Shown: piece by piece, positions 455 to 47,931 of the stretch
Layout of the letters: each line of letters opens with the position of its first letter
Numbering within the stretch: position 1 is the first letter of the stretch
Source: an uncultured Chloroflexia bacterium
GTDB taxonomy: Bacteria > Chloroflexota > Limnocylindria > QHBO01
Assembly (NCBI GenBank): GCA_963825525.1
Contig: CAWGTN010000003.1
Coordinates: forward strand, 32,001 to 96,000
Direction of reading: 5' to 3'
Length of the DNA: 64,000 nucleotides
The notes under the pieces: model-generated
The model's database searches: none
Told to the model about the DNA's origin: nothing
What the model saw: only the letters and a program-made list of their open reading frames with translations
Program-made: the position numbers and the translations under genes

Positions 455-467
455 CGAATAATAGTTG
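455..467. promoter_or_regulatory. Candidate operator box CGAATAATAGTTG
   Basis: The 12-mer GAATAATAGTTG is identical to 43850-43861; lies in a divergent intergenic region. Confidence 0.45.
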
Positions 468-532
468 GTGACACTGTAGCGCCTCTGTCCAGAGGTACGG
501 CCTTCGTGCACCTTCTGGGGGCATAGGGGCTC

Positions 533-612: not shown

Positions 613-1695
613 ATGGGCCACGTGCTTGGTGCCCTGGCACTGGCTGTCATCGGCCTGGCGTTGCTGATCATCGTTGCGCCGATCCTGCTTGTCATAGCAC
701 TTGTCTTCATGGTCGTTGCCTGGCGGCTGCCGGCGGCGGCGTCCCGCGTGTCGACACATCCGCGGTTGGCCCCCGTGCCGTCCTCGGTGCGGTCGACACC
801 GATGCGTTTCGCGAGCGCGCTGGTGGCTGCGACCATCGTGCTGACCGTCGCGTCCGTGGCAATCCGGGGACCCAATGAGGCCGAGCCAGCGGTCGCCGCC
901 GCAACTCCGACCTCGACAGCTACGGCGTCACCATCCGCGACGCCAGATCCCACACGCACCGAGCGGCCGACGGCTCGCCCGACGCCACGTCCCACGCGCA
1001 CCCCAAGCCCGGAGCCCACGCCAGTGCTCGGGCAGGAGCCGACGGGTTCGACGGAGATCGGCCTGGTCGTGAACATCGTGGATGGCGACACGATTGACGT
1101 CCTCGTCGATGGCGTCGAGATGCGGGTGCGCTACATCGGCATGGATACGCCGGAGGTCCACAGTGGGTTCGAGTGGCTGGGTGCCGAGTCCAGCGCGGCC
1201 AACGCACGCCTGGTCGAGGGCAAGGAAGTCGTGCTCGAGAAGGACGTGTCGGAGACGGACCAGTACGGGCGCGCGCTGCGCTACGTCTGGTTGCACGACG
1301 GCGGCGAGTGGTTGCTGGTGAACCTTGAGCTCATTCGGCTGGGATTCGCGGTCGTGACGACCTACCCACCCGACGTGAAGTACGTGGATGACTTCTACCT
1401 GCCGGCGCAGGAAGTCGCCCGCGACGCGGGATTGGGTCAATGGGGCAGTCCGCCCACTCCGGCCCCTACGCCGGTCCCGCCGCCGCCTCCTCCAGCGCCA
1501 ACGGCGGCGCCGATTCTGCCGATCGTGCCGTCGAACTGCGAGCCCTCATATCCCGGAATCTGCATTCCGATCGGATCGGCCGATCTCGATTGCGGCGAGA
1601 TCCAATGGCGACGCTTCCAGGTTCGCTGGGACGTGCCCAACCCTGACCCGCACCGGTTCGACGGTGATGGGGACGGCATCGGCTGCGAGTCGTGA
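613..1695 (+). CDS. Membrane-anchored thermonuclease (SNase family) with C-terminal Excalibur-like Ca-binding domain
   Basis: IVDGDTIDV, VRYIGMDTPE, DQYGRALRYV motifs; N-terminal TM helices; Pro/Thr linkers; DLDC..FDGDGDGIGCE; GGAGAGGGG RBS. Confidence 0.9.
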   Translation: MGHVLGALALAVIGLALLIIVAPILLVIALVFMVVAWRLPAAASRVSTHPRLAPVPSSVRSTPMRFASALVAATIVLTVASVAIRGPNEAEPAVAAATPTSTATASPSATPDPTRTERPTARPTPRPTRTPSPEPTPVLGQEPTGSTEIGLVVNIVDGDTIDVLVDGVEMRVRYIGMDTPEVHSGFEWLGAESSAANARLVEGKEVVLEKDVSETDQYGRALRYVWLHDGGEWLLVNLELIRLGFAVVTTYPPDVKYVDDFYLPAQEVARDAGLGQWGSPPTPAPTPVPPPPPPAPTAAPILPIVPSNCEPSYPGICIPIGSADLDCGEIQWRRFQVRWDVPNPDPHRFDGDGDGIGCES

Positions 1696-40715: not shown

Positions 40716-40865
40716 GTGACCGATACCTCATGCGGAACGGCTCGGGAGCCACAGCCGGGACCAACCGTCCTAGCCTACGCCTGTCGCGCGGTGCCCCGCC
40801 AGGGAATCTCGAAGCCGGGATGTGCGAGTTGGCCGCTGACGGAATCCGTGATGTACGGTAGGACC

Positions 40866-42833
40866 ATGGCCGACCTGGGGACGGAACCAGAGCAGGGGGC
40901 ACGGGCAGCCAGGCTCGCATTCGACGAGCGGCGATGGTCCGATGCAGTGGAGCTCTACCGACAGCTGGAAGCCGTCGAGGGCCTGGAACGCGACGACCTC
41001 GATCGATATGGCGAGGCGGCCTGGTGGACGGCTGATCTCACCACGGCGATCGCAGCCCGCGAGCGGGCGTTCTCCGCCCACATGGCTGCCGGCGACTCGC
41101 TGAGCGCCGCGTCGGCCGCCTTGTCCGCCGCCAACGACTACGGGCATCGGCTGCAGAGTGCGCTGGCGAGCGGGTGGGTGAAGCGAGCTGAGCGACTGCT
41201 CGCGGACCTCCCTGAATCTCCCGTCCACGCCTATCTCGGCCGCGCCCGGCTCGGGAAGGCGCTGGGTGCCGGCGACCTGGATGAGGCACTTCGCCAGGCG
41301 GACGCGATCCTGGCCATCGGCCGGCGCACAGGCGATCACGACATCGAGGCCCTGGGCCTTCAGGATAAGGGTCGCGTGCTGGTTGCTCGCGGCGAGGTGG
41401 CGGAAGGGCTGGCGCTGCTCGACGAGGCGATGGTTGCCGCCATTGGCGGCGATCTCAATCCGTACCCGACGGCCATCGTCTACTGCAATGTCACCGTCGC
41501 CTGCCAGGATCTGGCCGATTATCGTCGCGCCGTCGAGTTCGCGGAGGCAGCGCGACAGTGGTGCGACCGGCAGGCCATCGCCGGCTTCCCCGGCATGTGC
41601 CGTGTGCGACGCGCAGAGGTCACTCGGCTGCGCGGCGGTTGGGCGGAGGCCGAATCGGAGGCGCGGCAGGCCTGCGACGAGTTGAAGGACTTCAGCCTGG
41701 ACTACGCTGCGGAGGGGTTCTACCAGGTGGGCGAGATCCGGATGCGGATGGGCGACCACGACGCGGCCGAGGAGGCATTCCGCCAGGCTCACGAGCTCGG
41801 TCGGAGCCCGCTGCCGGGGCTGGCCCTCCTGCGATCGGCCCAGGGAAAGTCCGCCGCGGGCGTCACGATGCTGGCCCGTGCACTCGATGACCCTGCCGTG
41901 ATTCCCCTGACCCGCGCCCGGATCCTGGCGGCGTACGTGGAGGTCGCGGCTCAGGAGGGCACGCTTGACGAGGCCGAGAAGCGCGCGGCCGAGCTGGAAG
42001 CGCTCTCGGCAAAGTTCGGCACCCACGCGTTGCTCGCGGCCGCGGCCATGGCCAGTGGCCAGGTTGCGCTGGCGCGAGGCGATCCGACCGCCGCCCGGCC
42101 GCACCTCGAGCGCGCCCGTCGCCTGTGGCAGGAGACGGAGGCACCGTACGAGACCGCTCGCGCTCGCGAGCTGCTCGGACAGGCCGAGGCGTCCGCGGGC
42201 GATCCCGACAATGCCGCCATGGAGTTTCAGGCCGCACTGGCCACCTATCGCCGACTCGGCGCCATGCCCGATGCCGCGCGCCTCGAGGGCGTGCTACGCA
42301 CCGCGCTGATGGACTCCCCGGCGCAAGCATTGACGCGGACGATGATGTTCACCGACATCGTTCGATCCACGCAGCTCGTCGAGGCCATCGGCGACGAGGC
42401 ATGGACTCGGCTTCTCGATTGGCACGACCGGACCATTCGGGCGCTGATTGCGGAGCGCCAGGGCGAAGAGGTCGACCATGCCGGCGACGGATTCTTCATC
42501 GTGTTCGGTGACGCCTCGCATGCCATCGAGTGTGCGCTGGCGATCCAGCGCAGTCTGCGAGAGCATCGCCGCGAACATGGTTTCGCGCCGGCCGTCCGCA
42601 TCGGCCTTCACGTCGGCGACGTGATGCGTCCGGATACGGGGTACCAGGGCAGAGCCGTCCACCTGGCCGCCAGGATCGGGGGCTTGGCCCAGCCGGACGA
42701 GATCGTGGCGAGCCGTTCGGTCGTCGACGCCGCAGGCCACGGAGTCGCCCACGGACCGGAGCGTGAGGTGGAGCTGAAGGGCATCCGCGACCGGGTGACC
42801 GTCGTGACGATCCTGGATGGCGCGCAGGCCTAG
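40866..42833 (+). CDS. TPR-like sensor fused to a class III adenylate/guanylate cyclase
   Basis: FTDIVRST, AGDGF, RIGLHVG, AVHLAARI; N-terminal region resembles the 3106-4770 sensor; start uncertain. Confidence 0.88.
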   Translation: MADLGTEPEQGARAARLAFDERRWSDAVELYRQLEAVEGLERDDLDRYGEAAWWTADLTTAIAARERAFSAHMAAGDSLSAASAALSAANDYGHRLQSALASGWVKRAERLLADLPESPVHAYLGRARLGKALGAGDLDEALRQADAILAIGRRTGDHDIEALGLQDKGRVLVARGEVAEGLALLDEAMVAAIGGDLNPYPTAIVYCNVTVACQDLADYRRAVEFAEAARQWCDRQAIAGFPGMCRVRRAEVTRLRGGWAEAESEARQACDELKDFSLDYAAEGFYQVGEIRMRMGDHDAAEEAFRQAHELGRSPLPGLALLRSAQGKSAAGVTMLARALDDPAVIPLTRARILAAYVEVAAQEGTLDEAEKRAAELEALSAKFGTHALLAAAAMASGQVALARGDPTAARPHLERARRLWQETEAPYETARARELLGQAEASAGDPDNAAMEFQAALATYRRLGAMPDAARLEGVLRTALMDSPAQALTRTMMFTDIVRSTQLVEAIGDEAWTRLLDWHDRTIRALIAERQGEEVDHAGDGFFIVFGDASHAIECALAIQRSLREHRREHGFAPAVRIGLHVGDVMRPDTGYQGRAVHLAARIGGLAQPDEIVASRSVVDAAGHGVAHGPEREVELKGIRDRVTVVTILDGAQA

Positions 42834-43810
42834 GCGGCGGCATCCACGCGACGGGGTCGTCCCAGCAGGTATCCCTGCCCCAGTGTCACGCCGATCCGGA
42901 CGAGGGCCTCGCGCTCGGCATCGGTCTCGATGCCCTCGGCGATCAGAAGGGATGCCGATCCTTCCGCGTATCGCTGGAGGCCGGCCACGATCGCCTGTCT
43001 CGTCGGATCGGTCTCGACACCGTGAATGAGGTTGCGATCCAGCTTCACGATGGCTGGCCGAAGCTCGGCGAGGTGGCGCAGGCTGGCAAACCCGGCACCC
43101 GCGTCATCGACTGCCAGCCGTACCGTCCCGCCGATCGCCGCCAGCGCGGCCCGCACGGCCACGTAATCGGCCACCGGCTCATGCTCTGTCAGTTCGAGCA
43201 CGATCGGGCGTTCCGTGCGACGGAGCAGGCGGGCGAGTCGAGGGCTCACCAGCATGCTCGCCGAGGCATTGAGGCTGAGCCATAGGTCCGGCGCGAGCTT
43301 CGCCGCCGACCGCATGGCAGCCTCGATGCAGGCGGCCTCCAGTTCGACCCCGAGCTCGAGCTCAACGGCGTCGGCAAATCGATCCGACGGAGCCACGCCG
43401 TCATCGAATCGCGTGAGCGCCTCGAAACCAACGGGTCTCCCGTTCTGCAGGTCGATGATCGGTTGAAAGACGATCTCGAACCCTCGATCTCGGATGATCG
43501 CGGAGAGAATTCGCGTGCGCCGCCGCTGGAGATCTCTCGCGCGCAGCTCGCCGGAGATCCCGCGCCGATCCTGCTTGATGAGCACCACCAGGAGCAGCGA
43601 GGCCACGCCGGCGAAGGCCACGTCGATCATCGGGCGGATGCGGCTTGCCAACGCGGGATCGGCGATGGCGTTCACGGCTCGGTCGCTCAACAGCATCCAC
43701 GCGATGAGCGTCACGAACGTGAGCACGGCAATGCCTCGCGGCGACACCATGGCATCAACAACACTGCGGCTGCTCCCCCCGGGCGCAGTTCCTGCGCCGC
43801 GATCGGTCAC
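42830..43810 (-). CDS. Membrane-anchored EAL-domain c-di-GMP phosphodiesterase
   Basis: FQPI, EAL, ELTE, DDAGAG, KLD, AEGIE, QGY; two N-terminal TM helices. Confidence 0.92.
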   Translation of the reverse strand: MTDRGAGTAPGGSSRSVVDAMVSPRGIAVLTFVTLIAWMLLSDRAVNAIADPALASRIRPMIDVAFAGVASLLLVVLIKQDRRGISGELRARDLQRRRTRILSAIIRDRGFEIVFQPIIDLQNGRPVGFEALTRFDDGVAPSDRFADAVELELGVELEAACIEAAMRSAAKLAPDLWLSLNASASMLVSPRLARLLRRTERPIVLELTEHEPVADYVAVRAALAAIGGTVRLAVDDAGAGFASLRHLAELRPAIVKLDRNLIHGVETDPTRQAIVAGLQRYAEGSASLLIAEGIETDAEREALVRIGVTLGQGYLLGRPRRVDAAA

Positions 43811-43848
43811 CCGGTTGTCTCCTTCAGATCTCGGTGGGTCGTGGGAGA

Positions 43849-43887
43849 TGAATAATAGTTGTTTCCGCGATCCGTCACGGGTACTAT
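43849..43887 (+). promoter_or_regulatory. Peptide-gene promoter TTGTTT-17-TACTAT with box TGAATAATAGTTG overlapping the -35
   Basis: -35 at 43859-43864, -10 at 43882-43887, box at 43849-43861. Confidence 0.6.
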
Positions 43888-43938
43888 CGGCGGCCTCTGG
43901 GTGGGTGCCGCGGTTGGCGGGCGGAAAGGGAACTCCTC

Positions 43939-44046
43939 ATGCTCCGAATCCGCTCGTACCTGTTCTCCGTCGCACTGTCCGCACTTCTCACGCTCCTGAC
44001 GGCAGCCGCCGTCCTGGCAGAAGGCCAGCCTCCCATTCCGCGTTGA
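43939..44046 (+). CDS. 35-aa putative secreted signalling pro-peptide MLRIRSYLFSVALSALLTLLTAAAVLA-EGQPPIPR
   Basis: GAAAGGGA RBS; basic n-region, hydrophobic h-region, V-x-A cleavage site, 8-aa polar tail; abuts the XRE-TPR gene. Confidence 0.8.
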   Translation: MLRIRSYLFSVALSALLTLLTAAAVLAEGQPPIPR

Positions 44047-44060
44047 ACTGACCGAGCCGC

Positions 44061-45431
44061 TCAGAATCGAGAAACAGTGCCCGCCGGCCGTGCCCGCCCG
44101 TGAGAATCAGGGGTGACCTGAATGCCCGCTCCCCGGCCCATCGCGTCGGCGTAGAGCCGATTGGCTTCGGCGTGCTCACCCATGTCGGACAGGAAGCCTG
44201 CCCACTCGGCAAGGACGTCACGTCTCCTGGTCGTGGCCTGATGTGATTCGAGGAGTCCTGTCGCAGTGCGATACGAAGCCTCGGCAGCCGTTCGATCGCC
44301 TTGGCGACGCGCGACTCGAGCGAGGGTGAGATGGGCGCCGACTGCGGCCAGGTACGATCCGCCGTCGGTGCTCGCGGCGAGTGCTTCCCGGGCCAGCTGA
44401 GTCGCCGCCGCTACGTCGCCTTCCAGCAACGCAAGCTGTGCATCGGCCTCCGCCACGTCGGCAGCGAGCCGCGGGTCGTGGACGTGCCCCGTCAGTTCTC
44501 GAGCGCGCGACAGGTGTTCGCTGGCCCGGGCCAGGTTGCCCAACTCGATGAATACGAGACCGATGTTGATCTCGAGCGATGCCTCTTCTCGCTCAGACTC
44601 GGATCCTCGGTAGAGGGCCAAGCTCTCCTGCCCAGTCCGCAGGGCGCGCTCCAGGTCTCCGACGCGCCGATACTGCAGCGCCAATCCGGCAAGGAATGCG
44701 GCACGTTGCCTCAGCGACGTCTCCTGCGACAGCGCTCGTGCTTCTTCCATGTAGGTGAGCGCCCGCGCGGACTCGCCATCCCATGCTTCGACGTTTCCGA
44801 GTTGTGCCAGGAGGCGGAAGCGGAAGTCGGGTGCGACGTGGAGCCCATCGCGGTCCGCGGCGAGCAGAGCTTGCAGGATGGATCGCGCCTCTGCCGGATT
44901 GTCATCCTGGTAGTGCGCGCCGGCGAGCCAATAGCGTGACATCGCGGCATCGGCTGGGGAGCCAAGCTCGTCGAACAGTCGTGCCGCCTGCGACGCGGGC
45001 CGGATGGCGTCTCGTCCCCGGCCGAGCCGGCACAGCGCCTCTGAGCGGCCACGCAACAGCTCGGCCTGCTGTCGGCGGTCGTTGCCGGCGCGATCCAGCA
45101 GCGTGTCGTAGGCGTCGAGTGCCCGCTCCGCGTCACCGGATGCCAGCAGAAGATCGGCCTCGAGGCGCGCTGCCGCAGCTGGCTCCTCGGCGACCAGATC
45201 GGTGATCGCCACGCCGAGACGCTCGCTGAGGAATGTGAGGGCCGCCATCGATGGCTTGGCGAGGCCGCGCTCGAGCGCGCTGATGTAGGCAGCGGTGTAT
45301 CGGCCGCGCGCCACATCCGCCTGCGTCAGCTCGGCGCGGGTCCGCACCTCCCGGATGCGCTCTCCGATGCGGCGCGCGACGTGCGAGTTATCGACGACGG
45401 TGACTTGGCGACGCGCCCTTGTGGTCTTCAC
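44061..45431 (-). CDS. XRE-HTH plus TPR regulator (PlcR/NprR-like architecture)
   Basis: IGERIREVR..LTQADVA..TAAYISALERG..PS..LSERLGV, then tandem TPR-like helices; likely leaderless GTG at 45431 (ORF extends to 45458). Confidence 0.9.
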   Translation of the reverse strand: MKTTRARRQVTVVDNSHVARRIGERIREVRTRAELTQADVARGRYTAAYISALERGLAKPSMAALTFLSERLGVAITDLVAEEPAAAARLEADLLLASGDAERALDAYDTLLDRAGNDRRQQAELLRGRSEALCRLGRGRDAIRPASQAARLFDELGSPADAAMSRYWLAGAHYQDDNPAEARSILQALLAADRDGLHVAPDFRFRLLAQLGNVEAWDGESARALTYMEEARALSQETSLRQRAAFLAGLALQYRRVGDLERALRTGQESLALYRGSESEREEASLEINIGLVFIELGNLARASEHLSRARELTGHVHDPRLAADVAEADAQLALLEGDVAAATQLAREALAASTDGGSYLAAVGAHLTLARVARRQGDRTAAEASYRTATGLLESHQATTRRRDVLAEWAGFLSDMGEHAEANRLYADAMGRGAGIQVTPDSHGRARPAGTVSRF

Positions 45432-45438
45432 GTGTTCG

Positions 45439-45468
45439 ATGATAGCGAGCCGTACCAACTCATAGTTG
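45439..45468 (-). promoter_or_regulatory. Regulator promoter: TATCAT -10 and dyad CAACT-CAT-AGTTG over the -35 region
   Basis: Dyad at 45456-45468; -10 at 45444-45439, 7 nt before the GTG. Confidence 0.6.
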
Positions 45469-45504
45469 TCGGATGGGCCCGAGTTCGTAGATGAATCCGC
45501 CCGG

Positions 45505-46188
45505 TCAGAGCTGCCAGTACGCGCCGGTCAGACCCAGTTCGGCGAAGTGGGTGAGCAGGTCGTCCTTGCCCGGGCGCGCGTAGTCGATGGCGAATTTTGT
45601 CCGATAGATGGGGCCACTCAGCGCATGGGCCTCGTCGGGGGTCAGAGACGCGGCCTGGTCGGCAGGCGCGCACAGGTCGGACGCGTCGCGGTGCTCAGTC
45701 GATGAGAAGAAGACCATGGTGTTCGCGCAGGTGGTGACGATGTTCTCCCACCATTGCGTCGGCTTGAGGGCCAGGTACACCATCGCTCCGGAGGGCTGGA
45801 CGACCGTGGCTCCGCCCGCGCGCAGCTCGATGTGGATCGGCTCGGCGCAGTGATGGCATGCAGAATCAATTGTCACGTCGGCTTCGTCCAGCATCGCGTG
45901 GAAGGCGACCGCATCCCAGGCGCAGTTCGCGAAGTAGGTGCGGCCCTCGGCGGTGACCCGGAACGGCGTCGCGATGGCCGAGAACGGAAACGCCATCAGC
46001 ACGCGGGCCGTTCCCGGGACGAGTGCGATGTGCCGTGATGCGTCCAGCTCGCGGAGCGCGCCGGCTGCCTCGTCTCGGCCGAGCGAGAACTCGACCATCA
46101 GCTGCTCGACCACGGGCGGGACGGCGTGCTCACGGAAGTGTTCGAAGATGCGCAGCCGTATGCGCTGGATCAGCGTGGGCTCACTCAT
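45505..46188 (-). CDS. MerB-like (alkylmercury lyase family) protein
   Basis: MAFPFSAIATPF, ANCAWD, CHHC, TCANTMVFF. Confidence 0.8.
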   Translation of the reverse strand: MSEPTLIQRIRLRIFEHFREHAVPPVVEQLMVEFSLGRDEAAGALRELDASRHIALVPGTARVLMAFPFSAIATPFRVTAEGRTYFANCAWDAVAFHAMLDEADVTIDSACHHCAEPIHIELRAGGATVVQPSGAMVYLALKPTQWWENIVTTCANTMVFFSSTEHRDASDLCAPADQAASLTPDEAHALSGPIYRTKFAIDYARPGKDDLLTHFAELGLTGAYWQL

Positions 46189-46287
46189 GGCGGGTCCCTG
46201 CGACGACGTGTCGCGGCAGTGTAGCGACCGACGTCCGCATGCGGCATGCGCGGTTCATCACAGGCTGGAGCGGTAGCATCAGCGGCG

Positions 46288-47931
46288 ATGAATCAGTCGA
46301 GCGTCAATGGGGGGCCGGACCGCCTCGTGACCCACGCGGACCTGGCGTTCCTCGGAGGGAGCGTCGAGCCGATCGTTCGCGGCGGGCCACCGGTTGATGC
46401 CCTGGCCGTGCGGGATGGTCGCATTGTTGCGGTCGGCACAGCGACGGAGGTGCGCGACTGGATCGGTCCGCAGACCGAGGTGGTCGAGCTGGCGGGGGAG
46501 ACACTGATCCCGGGGTTCCAGGACGCCCACATTCACCCCATCGAGGGCGGGTTGTTGGCCGAACGCTGCGACCTTCATGCTCTCGCCGATGCCGACGCCT
46601 ACCTTGCGGCGATCGAGCGTTACGCCGCCGCACGACCTGATCGGCCGTGGGTCGAGGGCAGTGGGTGGTCGCTCTCTGCCTTTCCGCGAGGCGAGCCCGG
46701 CCGCGAGCTCCTGGATCGGATCGTCCCTGATCGCCCCGCGATCCTCGAGAGCAACGACGGTCACGTCGCCTGGGTCAACACGCGGGCGCTCGAGCTGGCG
46801 GGGATCACGGCGGCGACGACCGGCGTTCCGGACGGACGAATCGTGCGCGACGACCATGGTTCCCCTGCAGGGACGCTGGTCGACGGAGCAATCGACCTCG
46901 TGGCGCGACACGTACCCGCGCCGACCCACGCGGATCTGTTGGCCGGGTTGCGCACCGCCCAGGCGGAGCTGCATGGCCTTGGCATCACGGCCTGGCAGGA
47001 CGCACACGTCGAGCCGGCCAACCTGGCCGTCTACCGCGAGGCGGCGACCTCGGGCTGGCTGACGGCGCGCGTGGTGGCGGCCCTGTGGTGGGATCGCGAC
47101 CGAGGACTTGAGCAGATCGACGAGTTCGAGGACCAGCGCGCCGCCTCTCGGGTCGGTCGGCTGCGGGCCGATAGCGTGAAGCTCATGCTCGACGGCATCC
47201 TCGAGTCGCGCACCGCCCTGATGAACAGTCCCTACCTCGGTTCGGACTGGAGTGGCGTCCCGTTCATCGACCCGGAGCTTCTGCATCGGGCGGTGGTGGA
47301 GCTGGATCGGCGCGCGTTCCAGGCGCATTTCCACGCCATCGGCGATGGGGCCATTCGCTTGGCCCTGGACGCGATCGCATCGGCGCGTGCGGCGAACGGG
47401 CCGAGCGATGCGCGCCACCACATCAGCCACCTGGAGGTCATCCATCCCGATGACGTGCCACGCTTCGCCGAGCTCGACGCAGTCGCCAACATTCAGCCGT
47501 TCTGGGCGGTCGACGACGACCAGATGCAGGACCTGCGCATCCCGTCCCTCGGAGCGGAGCGCGTTGGCTGGCAGTTCGTCTTCGGCAGCCTGGTCCGTGC
47601 AGGGGCGAGGCTCGCCGCCGGTAGCGACTGGACGGTCACCACCGCCAACCCCTTGCTGGAGATCGAGGTCGCGGTGAACCGGATCGCGCCTGCCGCACGC
47701 AACGCCGCTCCATTCCTGCCCGATGAGCGCTTGAGCCTGGACGACGCGCTTGCCGCGTTCACCCGGGGCAGTGCATGGGTCAACCACCTGGATGCGGACA
47801 CCGGCAGCATCGAGGTCGGGAAGCTTGCCGATCTCGTCATCCTGGACCGGGATATCCGGGCACCCGATGCCGGGCCGATCGGCGACGCGGTGGTCCGGCA
47901 GACGTACGTCGAGGGCCAGCGGGTGTTCTGA
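46288..47931 (+). CDS. Amidohydrolase (YtcJ / Amidohydro_3)
   Basis: PGFQDAHIH, DGHVAWVN, HAIGD, GSDW, GSIEVGKLADLVIL. Confidence 0.92.
   Translation: MNQSSVNGGPDRLVTHADLAFLGGSVEPIVRGGPPVDALAVRDGRIVAVGTATEVRDWIGPQTEVVELAGETLIPGFQDAHIHPIEGGLLAERCDLHALADADAYLAAIERYAAARPDRPWVEGSGWSLSAFPRGEPGRELLDRIVPDRPAILESNDGHVAWVNTRALELAGITAATTGVPDGRIVRDDHGSPAGTLVDGAIDLVARHVPAPTHADLLAGLRTAQAELHGLGITAWQDAHVEPANLAVYREAATSGWLTARVVAALWWDRDRGLEQIDEFEDQRAASRVGRLRADSVKLMLDGILESRTALMNSPYLGSDWSGVPFIDPELLHRAVVELDRRAFQAHFHAIGDGAIRLALDAIASARAANGPSDARHHISHLEVIHPDDVPRFAELDAVANIQPFWAVDDDQMQDLRIPSLGAERVGWQFVFGSLVRAGARLAAGSDWTVTTANPLLEIEVAVNRIAPAARNAAPFLPDERLSLDDALAAFTRGSAWVNHLDADTGSIEVGKLADLVILDRDIRAPDAGPIGDAVVRQTYVEGQRVF

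Follow-up and report, generated by a model that had tools for sequence, protein, structure and literature searches.

A candidate RRNPP-like peptide and receptor gene pair in Limnocylindria of the phylum Chloroflexota

We analyzed a DNA window of 64,000 nucleotides from an uncultured soil bacterium of the Chloroflexota (assembly GCA_963825525.1, contig CAWGTN010000003.1, positions 32,001 to 96,000) and found that a gene for a 35-residue pre-peptide and a gene for a regulator with an XRE-type helix-turn-helix (HTH) domain and tetratricopeptide repeats (TPR) lie side by side and are conserved together. With a probability of roughly 60%, we consider this pair a new RRNPP-like peptide-signaling family, forming a two-gene cell-cell signaling module in the class Limnocylindria. 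In the RRNPP systems of Firmicutes (PlcR/PapR, NprR/NprX, Rap/Phr, and AimR/AimP), an intracellular TPR receptor is paired with an adjacent pro-peptide that is exported and re-imported. A preliminary description of this DNA had inferred a quorum-sensing-type system in a non-Firmicute host. Our results support that proposal: the genome is that of a high-GC member of the Chloroflexota, class Limnocylindria, the closest relatives of the receptor occur in Limnocylindria or other Chloroflexota metagenome-assembled genomes, and none of the grounds for refutation that were tested in silico was found to hold. In the following, clade A denotes receptor orthologues from relatives at 63-74% identity, with 12 distinct loci. 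The elements of the pair are as follows.

43923..43931, forward strand: Shine-Dalgarno sequence GGAAAGGGA; a G/A-rich motif (GGAAAGGGA or a near variant) stands at the same position in 12/12 clade-A loci
43939..44019, forward strand: pre-peptide residues 1-27, with an n-region containing R3 and R5, a hydrophobic core, and V-L-A at positions -3 to -1
44020..44046, forward strand: predicted mature 8-mer EGQPPIPR (44020-44043), after a putative cleavage site, and stop codon (44044-44046)
44061..45431, reverse strand: receptor gene, XRE-HTH and nine TPRs, 456 residues from the GTG at 45431 (open reading frame list, Pfam, orthologue starts, and model)
45192..45386, reverse strand: receptor HTH, residues ~16-80 (Pfam and model)
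44142..45182, reverse strand: nine TPR-like helix pairs of the receptor, residues 84-430 (model)

The open reading frame (ORF) at 43939..44046 begins with ATG and encodes 35 residues identical to those quoted in the preliminary description. The ribosome-binding site and the spacing given there were also confirmed: the Shine-Dalgarno sequence lies 7 nt 5' of the ATG, and the peptide stop codon ends at 44046 while the receptor stop codon starts at 44061, which leaves a 14-nt gap between the convergent genes. By script, the pre-peptide reached a Kyte-Doolittle value of 1.9 or more over a 15-residue window and fitted the -3/-1 rule, with small residues at both positions. Its n-region is basic, and residues 1-27 can be read as a Sec-type signal peptide. 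Among 15 aligned peptides, R3, R5, and A27 were invariant. Within the genus, the peptide alignment showed L19, A23, and A27 to be invariant and TLLTAAAALA to be nearly so.

Conservation of the ORF had been named as a condition on which the proposal depended, and the ORF was found to be kept as a coding sequence in the 12 clade-A orthologues. A convergent 35-codon ORF of exactly 108 nt was present in 12/12 clade-A loci, and its tail followed the pattern (E/D)(G/S)xPP(I/F/H)P(R/K/H) in all 12. Pairwise differences by codon position were 485/241/1048 (n=12), falling mainly in third positions, and ungapped identity in clade A was 0.75 within the ORF compared to 0.42 in the upstream and 0.33 in the downstream flank. 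The invariant length, the preference of substitutions for third positions, and the conservation of the Shine-Dalgarno sequence and of a promoter-like box mark the small ORF as a real gene, and the comparison indicates that it is a conserved one. The same features argue against the explanation that the small ORF has nothing to do with the regulator and is either a chance ORF or a hydrophobic peptide of type I toxin character paired with an antisense partner. It is true that high-GC DNA gives many spurious ORFs, and that transcripts probably overlap across the 14-nt convergent gap, with no terminator-like site found in 43600-45700. However, homologous ORFs recur in two classes, and the pair is divergent or co-oriented in most clades, so the antisense layout is not general. 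Rfam showed no family at E<=1 across 43000-46500, which also speaks against a toxin-antisense locus. We regard this explanation as highly improbable. The 35-residue peptide had no match in Pfam, and the exact peptide of the window was absent among ~15 billion predicted proteins, where two relatives were present as 'hypothetical protein'; such genes are therefore partly missed by gene callers.

We found that the peptide and receptor genes share one distribution. In a draw of 41 genomes of the genus, with a receptor threshold of E<=1e-100 and the peptide detected by profile, the peptide profile matched 15/41 genomes, and the receptor was found in exactly these 15, each time beside the peptide gene on one contig. 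The remaining 26/41 had neither peptide nor receptor, and one genome had two copies of both. The result holds without G310, an unpublished genome among the 15. Because the two genes co-occur while their neighbors change, the pair appears to behave as a self-contained module of patchy distribution that is gained or lost as a unit. Genome comparison thus shows that both genes are inherited, lost, and moved together.

As the preliminary description anticipated, receptor homologues with adjacent small signal-peptide ORFs were found elsewhere, in Limnocylindria and in two receptor families of Dormibacteria. At E<=1e-40, the receptor family was detected in 97/103 genomes of family f1, to which the window belongs, and in 45/91 genomes of f3, and it was detected in 0/92, 0/12, and 0/2 genomes of three other families (these tallies include six unpublished genomes). 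Candidate peptide genes were sought up to 700 nt upstream or 500 nt downstream of the receptor at 97 Limnocylindria loci (60 fetched additionally). The fixed criterion required 28-48 residues, K/R close to the N-terminus, hydropathy of 1.9 or more over a 15-residue window, and a tail 3-18 residues long. A candidate ORF was carried by 71/97 loci, with 53 divergent, 18 convergent, and 3 co-oriented candidates, the last being read as noise. The 2.58-Mb genome as a whole contained 88 ORFs fitting the criterion, or 0.034/kb, which corresponds to ~0.04 per locus and ~4 in 97. Since 71/97 loci carried a candidate against ~4/97 expected, the adjacency exceeds chance.

A second pair was found in the same genome on contig C2. 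Its receptor is 44% identical to that of the window, and a divergent 41-codon ORF with an AAGGAG Shine-Dalgarno sequence and the tail ..GGADFPLRR lies ~180-215 nt upstream. Clade-B ORFs (n=9) were all 126 nt long, with codon-position differences of 291/196/488. In one clade-B locus (L002) and 11 others, a conserved inverted repeat, GGGACC...GCAATGACCC...GGTCCC, was observed between peptide and receptor, together with a block GGTCAA..GCTTGCCA..GTGTAGACT in the same intergenic region, and the conserved elements end ~8 nt before the receptor ATG. From this arrangement, the receptor mRNA may be leaderless and the two genes may share an operator. Downstream of the clade-B receptor gene come a conserved convergent gene for a ~200-residue membrane-anchored protein without a Pfam family and then DUF3090. 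In family f2, 3/3 loci had a co-oriented upstream ORF of 38-41 residues (identified by eye; one also under a relaxed criterion). These ORFs (L029, L031, and L032) lie ~180-260 nt upstream and end in A(A/Y)A-CDPxxxGxxC, with the Cys residues 6-8 residues apart, which suggests from the sequence pattern a disulfide-cyclised peptide.

Beyond the class, the A1 profile, made from 50 receptors, detected full-length homologues in 96/401 Chloroflexota genomes at E<=1e-30. We fetched 40 loci from other families, and 25 were re-examined under the relaxed criterion. In two Dormibacteria receptor families (f19 and f24), an ORF of the same orientation precedes the receptor gene by 40-160 nt. The first Dormibacteria type encodes 27-31 residues ending in ..(A/S)CAE..WPNP and was present in 29/40 loci of its receptor family, the loci without it forming a lower-identity subgroup; the second encodes 30-33 residues (once 41) ending in ..A(D/E/G)xxxxCC(x) and was present in 66/66 loci. 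One f19 locus (L208) had a divergent 26-residue ORF under the relaxed criterion. At L309-L378, the tails end in ..CC, ..CCH, ..CCS, or ..CCL, and the ORF lies ~20-175 nt upstream of the receptor match. For these CC-ended tails, disulfide formation, metal binding, or lipidation is conceivable chemistry.

The three main sets, Limnocylindria and the two Dormibacteria types, contained 68, 25, and 64 unique peptides. Across them, the residues preceding the predicted cleavage site were small at -3 and -1 (ALA, VMA, VLA, VGA, SCA, ACA, and others), and position +1 was mostly D, E, or G. Tails were mostly 7-11 residues and precursors 27-44 residues long. On a quick maximum-likelihood tree of 92 receptors, both tail type and gene orientation were properties of clades, the orientation being convergent, divergent, or co-oriented upstream depending on the clade. 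A convergent clade had ..PP(I/F)PR and its convergent sister clade ..SPxxWP, while divergent clades had ..G(S/G)WP and ..GPWP. The f3 clades had ..GGxPFP(R/H/K), the second pair of the genus ..GGGDFPR(LR), and another clade ..AACSNGNGFP. Pairs residing together in one genome had different tails. Such clade-wise divergence is how orthogonal channels would be expected to look, and vertical co-inheritance alone would give the same picture; it supports the signaling interpretation without proving it. At four loci (L044, L046, L055, and L045) with tails ..AACSNG(N/G/A)G(F/W)P, V-A-A-C was observed to fit a lipobox as well, and cleavage by signal peptidase I could here be replaced by lipid modification at Cys+1.

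We next consider the receptor. Its reverse-strand ORF spans 44061..45458 and would encode 465 residues if the TTG at 45458 were used; the GTG at 45431 was taken as the start because orthologues begin there. The ~456-residue XRE-HTH and TPR protein of the preliminary description was borne out by Pfam, with HTH_3 at E 2.9e-6, TPR_12 at E 1.1e-15, and further TPR families. Pfam and NCBIfam at E<=1 gave generic TPR and HTH matches and none to a curated RRNPP subfamily model, so the receptor does not fall into an already known family; a known family in a Firmicute genome had been named as an outcome that would count against the proposal. The best NCBIfam match was NsdA_fam_reg, at 58 bits against a cut-off of 75. 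Against chains of the Protein Data Bank, the A1 profile gave weak matches to PlcR (HTH), RapH, NprR, and RapJ among many generic TPR proteins (NprR E 3.1e-7; PlcR HTH E 1.4e-9). No receptor homologue was found in 50,697 phage records, and a plasmid collection gave an HTH-only match on two Priestia plasmids; an origin from a mobile element is thus unsupported. A search of representative proteins at E<=1e-30 returned 1,732 matches that mix true relatives with giant multi-TPR proteins, and this number was not used as a family size. In an atlas of proteins, the neighbors in feature space include two Actinomycetota clusters with HTH_3 and TPR_12, of 408-422 residues, with 830 and 296 members.

The AlphaFold model of the receptor, built on A1, had a mean pLDDT of 92.6 and a pTM of 0.80. 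It consists of a five-helix HTH (residues 16-80) followed by 18 helices (84-430) forming nine TPR-like pairs. In Foldseek, designed and eukaryotic TPR proteins ranked first, and RapI, PlcR-PapR7-DNA (rank 30), RapJ, and RapF were in the top 50. Alignment with VIA-align gave Z 24.2 for apo NprR (5dbk), over 345 residues with a root-mean-square deviation of 5.9 and the whole TPR domain covered, 23.4 for RapJ-PhrC, 22.9 for RapI, ~22.8-22.9 for phage Raps with pheromone, and 21.0 for NprR-NprX (4gpk). AimR had Z 17.3, aligned over both HTH and TPR. TTC7B (Z 27.7) and LGN (Z ~26) were above NprR and Rap. In a scan of 48,161 chains independent of Foldseek, RapI and a phage Rap ranked 4 and 5 as the best bacterial full-length matches, NprR was 17th, MalT domain III 19th, and AimR 30th. 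Co-folding of receptor residues 85-456 with the 35-residue pre-peptide, with alignments and without controls, scored 0.02 against a mark of 0.32, a value that counts neither way for binding. The fold and sequence comparisons give the receptor an NprR-like architecture outside every described subfamily; at best it represents a new subfamily.

The region upstream of the peptide gene contains conserved elements, and a second copy of the core of one of them occurs in the window.

43848..43863, forward strand: AT-rich box, ATGAATAATAGTTGTT in this genome and TTGATAATAGTTGAT as the genus consensus (from the aligned 160 nt preceding 12 clade-A ORFs)
43882..43887, forward strand: -10-like TACTAT within the conserved GGTACTATCGG, 17 nt past the -35-like hexamer (clade-A alignment)
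457..468, forward strand: second copy of the box core, AATAATAGTTGG, ~150 nt upstream of an SNase-family gene (613-1695, forward strand)

A -35-like TTGTTT at 43859-43864 overlaps the AT-rich box. In the 12-locus alignment, the order upstream of the clade-A ORFs was the box TTGATAATAGTTGAT, a 17-nt spacer, GGTACTATCGG, and CTCCGGGTGG. The box, GGTACTATCGG, and CTCCGGGTGG are candidates for the -35 and operator, the -10, and the 5' untranslated region of the peptide gene. Consensus scans of 43600-45700 showed no sigma-70-like promoter and no intrinsic terminator. Since the generic promoter scan did not call the elements at 43848-43887, conservation is the single basis of this promoter assignment. 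The two intergenic stretches likewise contained no inverted repeats. The box pattern RATAATAGTTGR occurred at 12 places in 11/41 genomes of the genus, and a reversed-pattern control gave 1 match. Ten of the 12 places adjoin a clade-A receptor locus: nine lie ~50-250 nt past the end of the receptor match, and the tenth (G079:C72) is separated from a partial match by 217 nt. In the whole 2.58-Mb genome, the box core ATAATAGTTG occurred twice, at the peptide promoter and at 457-468. The gene downstream of the latter encodes a membrane-anchored SNase-family nuclease (Pfam SNase, E 1.2e-12), and the spacing to promoter-like elements there is unlike that at the peptide promoter. Site 457-468 may be a second regulator target or a chance match, and it is a weak lead.

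We infer cleavage, export, re-import, binding, an operator, and a regulon from these observations, and the system could work as follows. The 35-residue pre-peptide would be exported by Sec, and signal peptidase I, which is encoded in the genome, would cut after V-L-A; this step alone would yield the 8-mer EGQPPIPR. Once its concentration is high, the peptide would be taken up again, probably via one of the peptide ABC importers; the genome holds at least six SBP_bac_5 peptide- or nickel-binding genes (eight match segments), none of which adjoins the pair. In the cytoplasm, EGQPPIPR would bind the concave groove of the nine-TPR domain of the XRE-HTH regulator and alter its action at DNA, most likely at the AT-rich box over the -35 of the peptide gene's own promoter, leading to autoinduction. 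Chloroflexota are generally regarded as single-membrane bacteria, and a single membrane suits a cycle of export and re-import. The second pair on the other contig of the genome would form an orthogonal channel, and related pairs with other codes are widespread in Limnocylindria and Dormibacteria.

Several observations weigh against the signaling interpretation. Related genomes are not independent, and independent events are fewer than the counts suggest; 15/15, for instance, does not stand for 15 separate events. In the model comparisons, eukaryotic TPR proteins score at or above NprR and Rap, so the predicted fold does not discriminate. The receptor matches no curated RRNPP subfamily model. 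The conserved box appears essentially private to the peptide promoter, which leaves the regulon undefined. In addition, 26/97 Limnocylindria loci had no adjacent candidate; two of these (L022 and L033) are cut by a contig end, one (L075) has a peptide under a 13-residue window, and three belong to f2. Most of the remaining loci without a candidate form monophyletic subclades of a syntenic paralogue, in genera whose genomes carry another receptor and peptide pair. Outside f19 and f24, 22 distant loci (covering f8, f10, f16, f18, f25, and f29) showed no candidate under the relaxed criterion save a poor 24-residue ORF at L219, and HTH-TPR regulators of this type can therefore work without an adjacent peptide. 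The ~21-residue uncharged core of the pre-peptide would also fit an uncleaved membrane anchor.

The peptide-less loci of the syntenic paralogue comprise L057-L063, L065-L067, L069-L071, L073, L074, and L076-L080, and most of these genomes hold another pair. The receptors are candidates for orphan ('eavesdropping') receptors, and some of them may listen to peptides made elsewhere.

The anchor reading was considered further: the small gene may encode a single-pass membrane protein, uncleaved, with its N-terminus inside and an eight-residue tail outside, whose role would be to modulate a process in the membrane or to tether the regulator. A core of this length is within the range of transmembrane helices, and it is unusually well conserved within the genus. 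However, the small residues at -3 and -1 followed mostly by D, E, or G across all three peptide sets are the pattern of signal peptidase I, and the short extracellular tail is the best-conserved and clade-specific part. Moreover, a cytoplasmic part of ~6 residues would be too short to anchor a TPR protein. We consider a membrane protein quite unlikely.

The main rival to peptide signaling is a regulator-target pair without a ligand relationship, in which the HTH-TPR protein controls the small gene and the peptide is antimicrobial, metal-binding, or surface-active, the TPR domain sensing something else, be it a metabolite or a partner protein. In its favor, divergent pairs of regulator and target are common, the peptide gene has a conserved promoter box, and many homologues work without an adjacent peptide. 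The CC-ended Dormibacteria tails and the two-Cys f2 tails could also point to metal binding or disulfide chemistry. On the other hand, this explanation does not account for the clade-by-clade diversification of tails with the receptor, the differing tails of paralogues in one genome, or the strictly joint gain and loss of the pair amid changing neighbors, and an unmodified linear peptide of 7-11 residues is short for an antimicrobial. We therefore judge a regulator-target pair to be unlikely, and peptide signaling remains our preferred interpretation.

Among known systems, NprR/NprX of the Bacillus cereus group is one of the closest. The pair shares with it an N-terminal XRE-type HTH with nine TPR-like repeats at a similar size (456 residues here; NprR has ~420), a TPR domain that superposes as a whole, and a small neighboring gene with a predicted Sec-type signal. 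It differs in having no family-level sequence match, in its phylum, Chloroflexota, and in its minimal precursor, which would consist of signal peptide and mature peptide with no pro-region. The gene orientation here is convergent or divergent, whereas the NprX gene is co-oriented downstream of the NprR gene. Rap/Phr, PlcR/PapR, and AimR/AimP are likewise built from a TPR receptor in the cytoplasm and a small pro-peptide, encoded next to it, that is exported (export being predicted here). Rap proteins have no HTH and act on proteins, PlcR has five TPRs, and in Phr, PapR, and AimP the C-terminal peptide is freed only by a second proteolytic cut. LGN/Pins and TTC7B gave the top Z values, 26-27.7, over the same 310-325 residues and, from their entry titles, bind extended peptides in the concave groove; unlike the receptor, they are eukaryotic scaffolds with no HTH and no gene-pair context.

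The Rgg/SHP systems of streptococci resemble the pair in other respects. SHPs, which are hydrophobic, use PptAB/Eep for export and not Sec and signal peptidase I, whereas the tails here, which come after an AxA-type site, are hydrophilic and rich in Pro and Gly. The Rgg receptors are smaller than the receptor here, and no Rgg model of Pfam or NCBIfam matched it. The precursors are of comparable length (27-44 residues here). The preliminary description had set the convergent layout apart from the co-oriented PlcR/PapR arrangement, and the genes are indeed convergent. However, convergence itself is not new: in the part of the source available, the gene pairs of Rgg/SHP groups I and II diverge, and those of group III converge and overlap at the 3' end of rgg (PMC13361665). 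The same excerpt gives a conserved Asp or Glu opening the mature peptide for SHPs of groups I and II (PMC13361665). The same gene layouts are thus found here, and D or E is the commonest +1 residue.

The described range of RRNPP systems is Firmicutes, their plasmids, and phages, and a host among the Chloroflexota/Dormibacterota lies outside it. According to the accessible portion of the RRNPP_detector paper, that survey covered 7,974 Firmicutes genomes and 47,982 viruses and no other hosts (PMC10075063). The same portion defines a receptor as having 250-500 residues with a TPR-type peptide-binding domain and a propeptide as an adjacent gene of 10-100 residues (PMC10075063). The present pair has these sizes, with a 456-residue TPR receptor and a 35-residue propeptide 14 nt away. 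RRNPP propeptides are also expected to be secreted, through either a Sec signal or the PptAB route, and the putative signal here would be of the Sec type. RRNPPA regulators are described, in the available text, as those in firmicutes and phages. The preliminary description had stated that no characterized example was known in this lineage. In agreement with this, we found no RRNPP-type system described for Chloroflexota, Dormibacteria (judged there by title and abstract), or other phyla in a literature search whose scope excluded subscription journals, and in the accessible part of a 2026 Limnocylindria paper the terms quorum, pheromone, tetratricopeptide, and XRE are absent. The restriction to Firmicutes hosts is a historical limit and not a mechanistic requirement.

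The genome of the window is 2.58 Mb in 4 contigs and 92% complete. Three genes flank the pair.

40716..42833, forward strand: TPR and adenylate/guanylate cyclase gene (Pfam)
42830..43810, reverse strand: membrane-anchored EAL-domain gene (Pfam)
45505..46188, reverse strand: MerB-like gene of the alkylmercury lyase family (Pfam), directly upstream of the receptor gene on the same strand

The cyclase and EAL genes overlap by 4 nt, tail to tail, and the EAL gene is divergent from the peptide gene, with a 128-nt spacer. An EAL neighbor was found in 1/14 other clade-A loci, that of the closest relative (L004), and a cyclase beside the pair in one other genome (L008). Neighbors at other clade-A loci were TetR, MFS, Vgb-lyase-like, PD40, SDR, cyclase, and APH genes and unassigned ORFs. 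A conserved regulon from gene neighborhood was rejected, as flanking genes differ among genomes. These flanks also bear on whether the small ORF encodes the precursor of a ribosomally synthesized and post-translationally modified peptide (RiPP), with the HTH-TPR protein as pathway regulator. Some clades have Cys-rich tails, and the receptor gave sub-threshold NCBIfam matches to the RiPP-associated TPR protein HaaT, at 23.5-51 bits. Those matches are far under the cut-off of 1125 and fall over generic TPR repeats, the N-terminal part of the peptide resembles a Sec signal and not a RiPP leader, and no modification enzyme is conserved beside the pair, the flanks of 14 clade-A loci being unrelated. 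A RiPP precursor is therefore very unlikely.

What is new here is the receptor family, the phylum, the minimal precursors, and the peptide codes; the RRNPP kind of design is known. The peptide codes seen were ..PPIPR, ..GGDFPR(LR), ..GxWP, ..WPNP, ..CC, and CDP..C. On a wider scale, we see about an even chance that cytoplasmic-receptor peptide quorum sensing extends beyond Bacillota as an independent or very old RRNPP-like family native to Chloroflexota. Such a family would have been kept by vertical inheritance in Limnocylindria and Dormibacteria while splitting into many orthogonal channels, with up to two or more pairs per genome, each defined by a tail of 7-11 residues freed directly by signal peptidase. 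The look-alike Actinomycetota HTH and TPR clusters may extend the family across monoderm Terrabacteria.

In the literature as accessible here, RRNPP signaling is treated as a trait of Firmicutes and mobile elements, and a Limnocylindria/Dormibacteria family would change this picture. If the signaling interpretation is true, the origin or convergent reinvention of this signaling logic moves deep into monoderm bacteria. Limnocylindria and Dormibacteria, which abound in soil and freshwater, are known only through metagenomes, and the peptides would be the first candidate cell-cell signals for them. These short, cheaply synthesized peptides would be testable on purified receptors, in reporter hosts, and as cultivation aids, and the more than 150 peptide-receptor pairs would form a natural set for studying the evolution of specificity.

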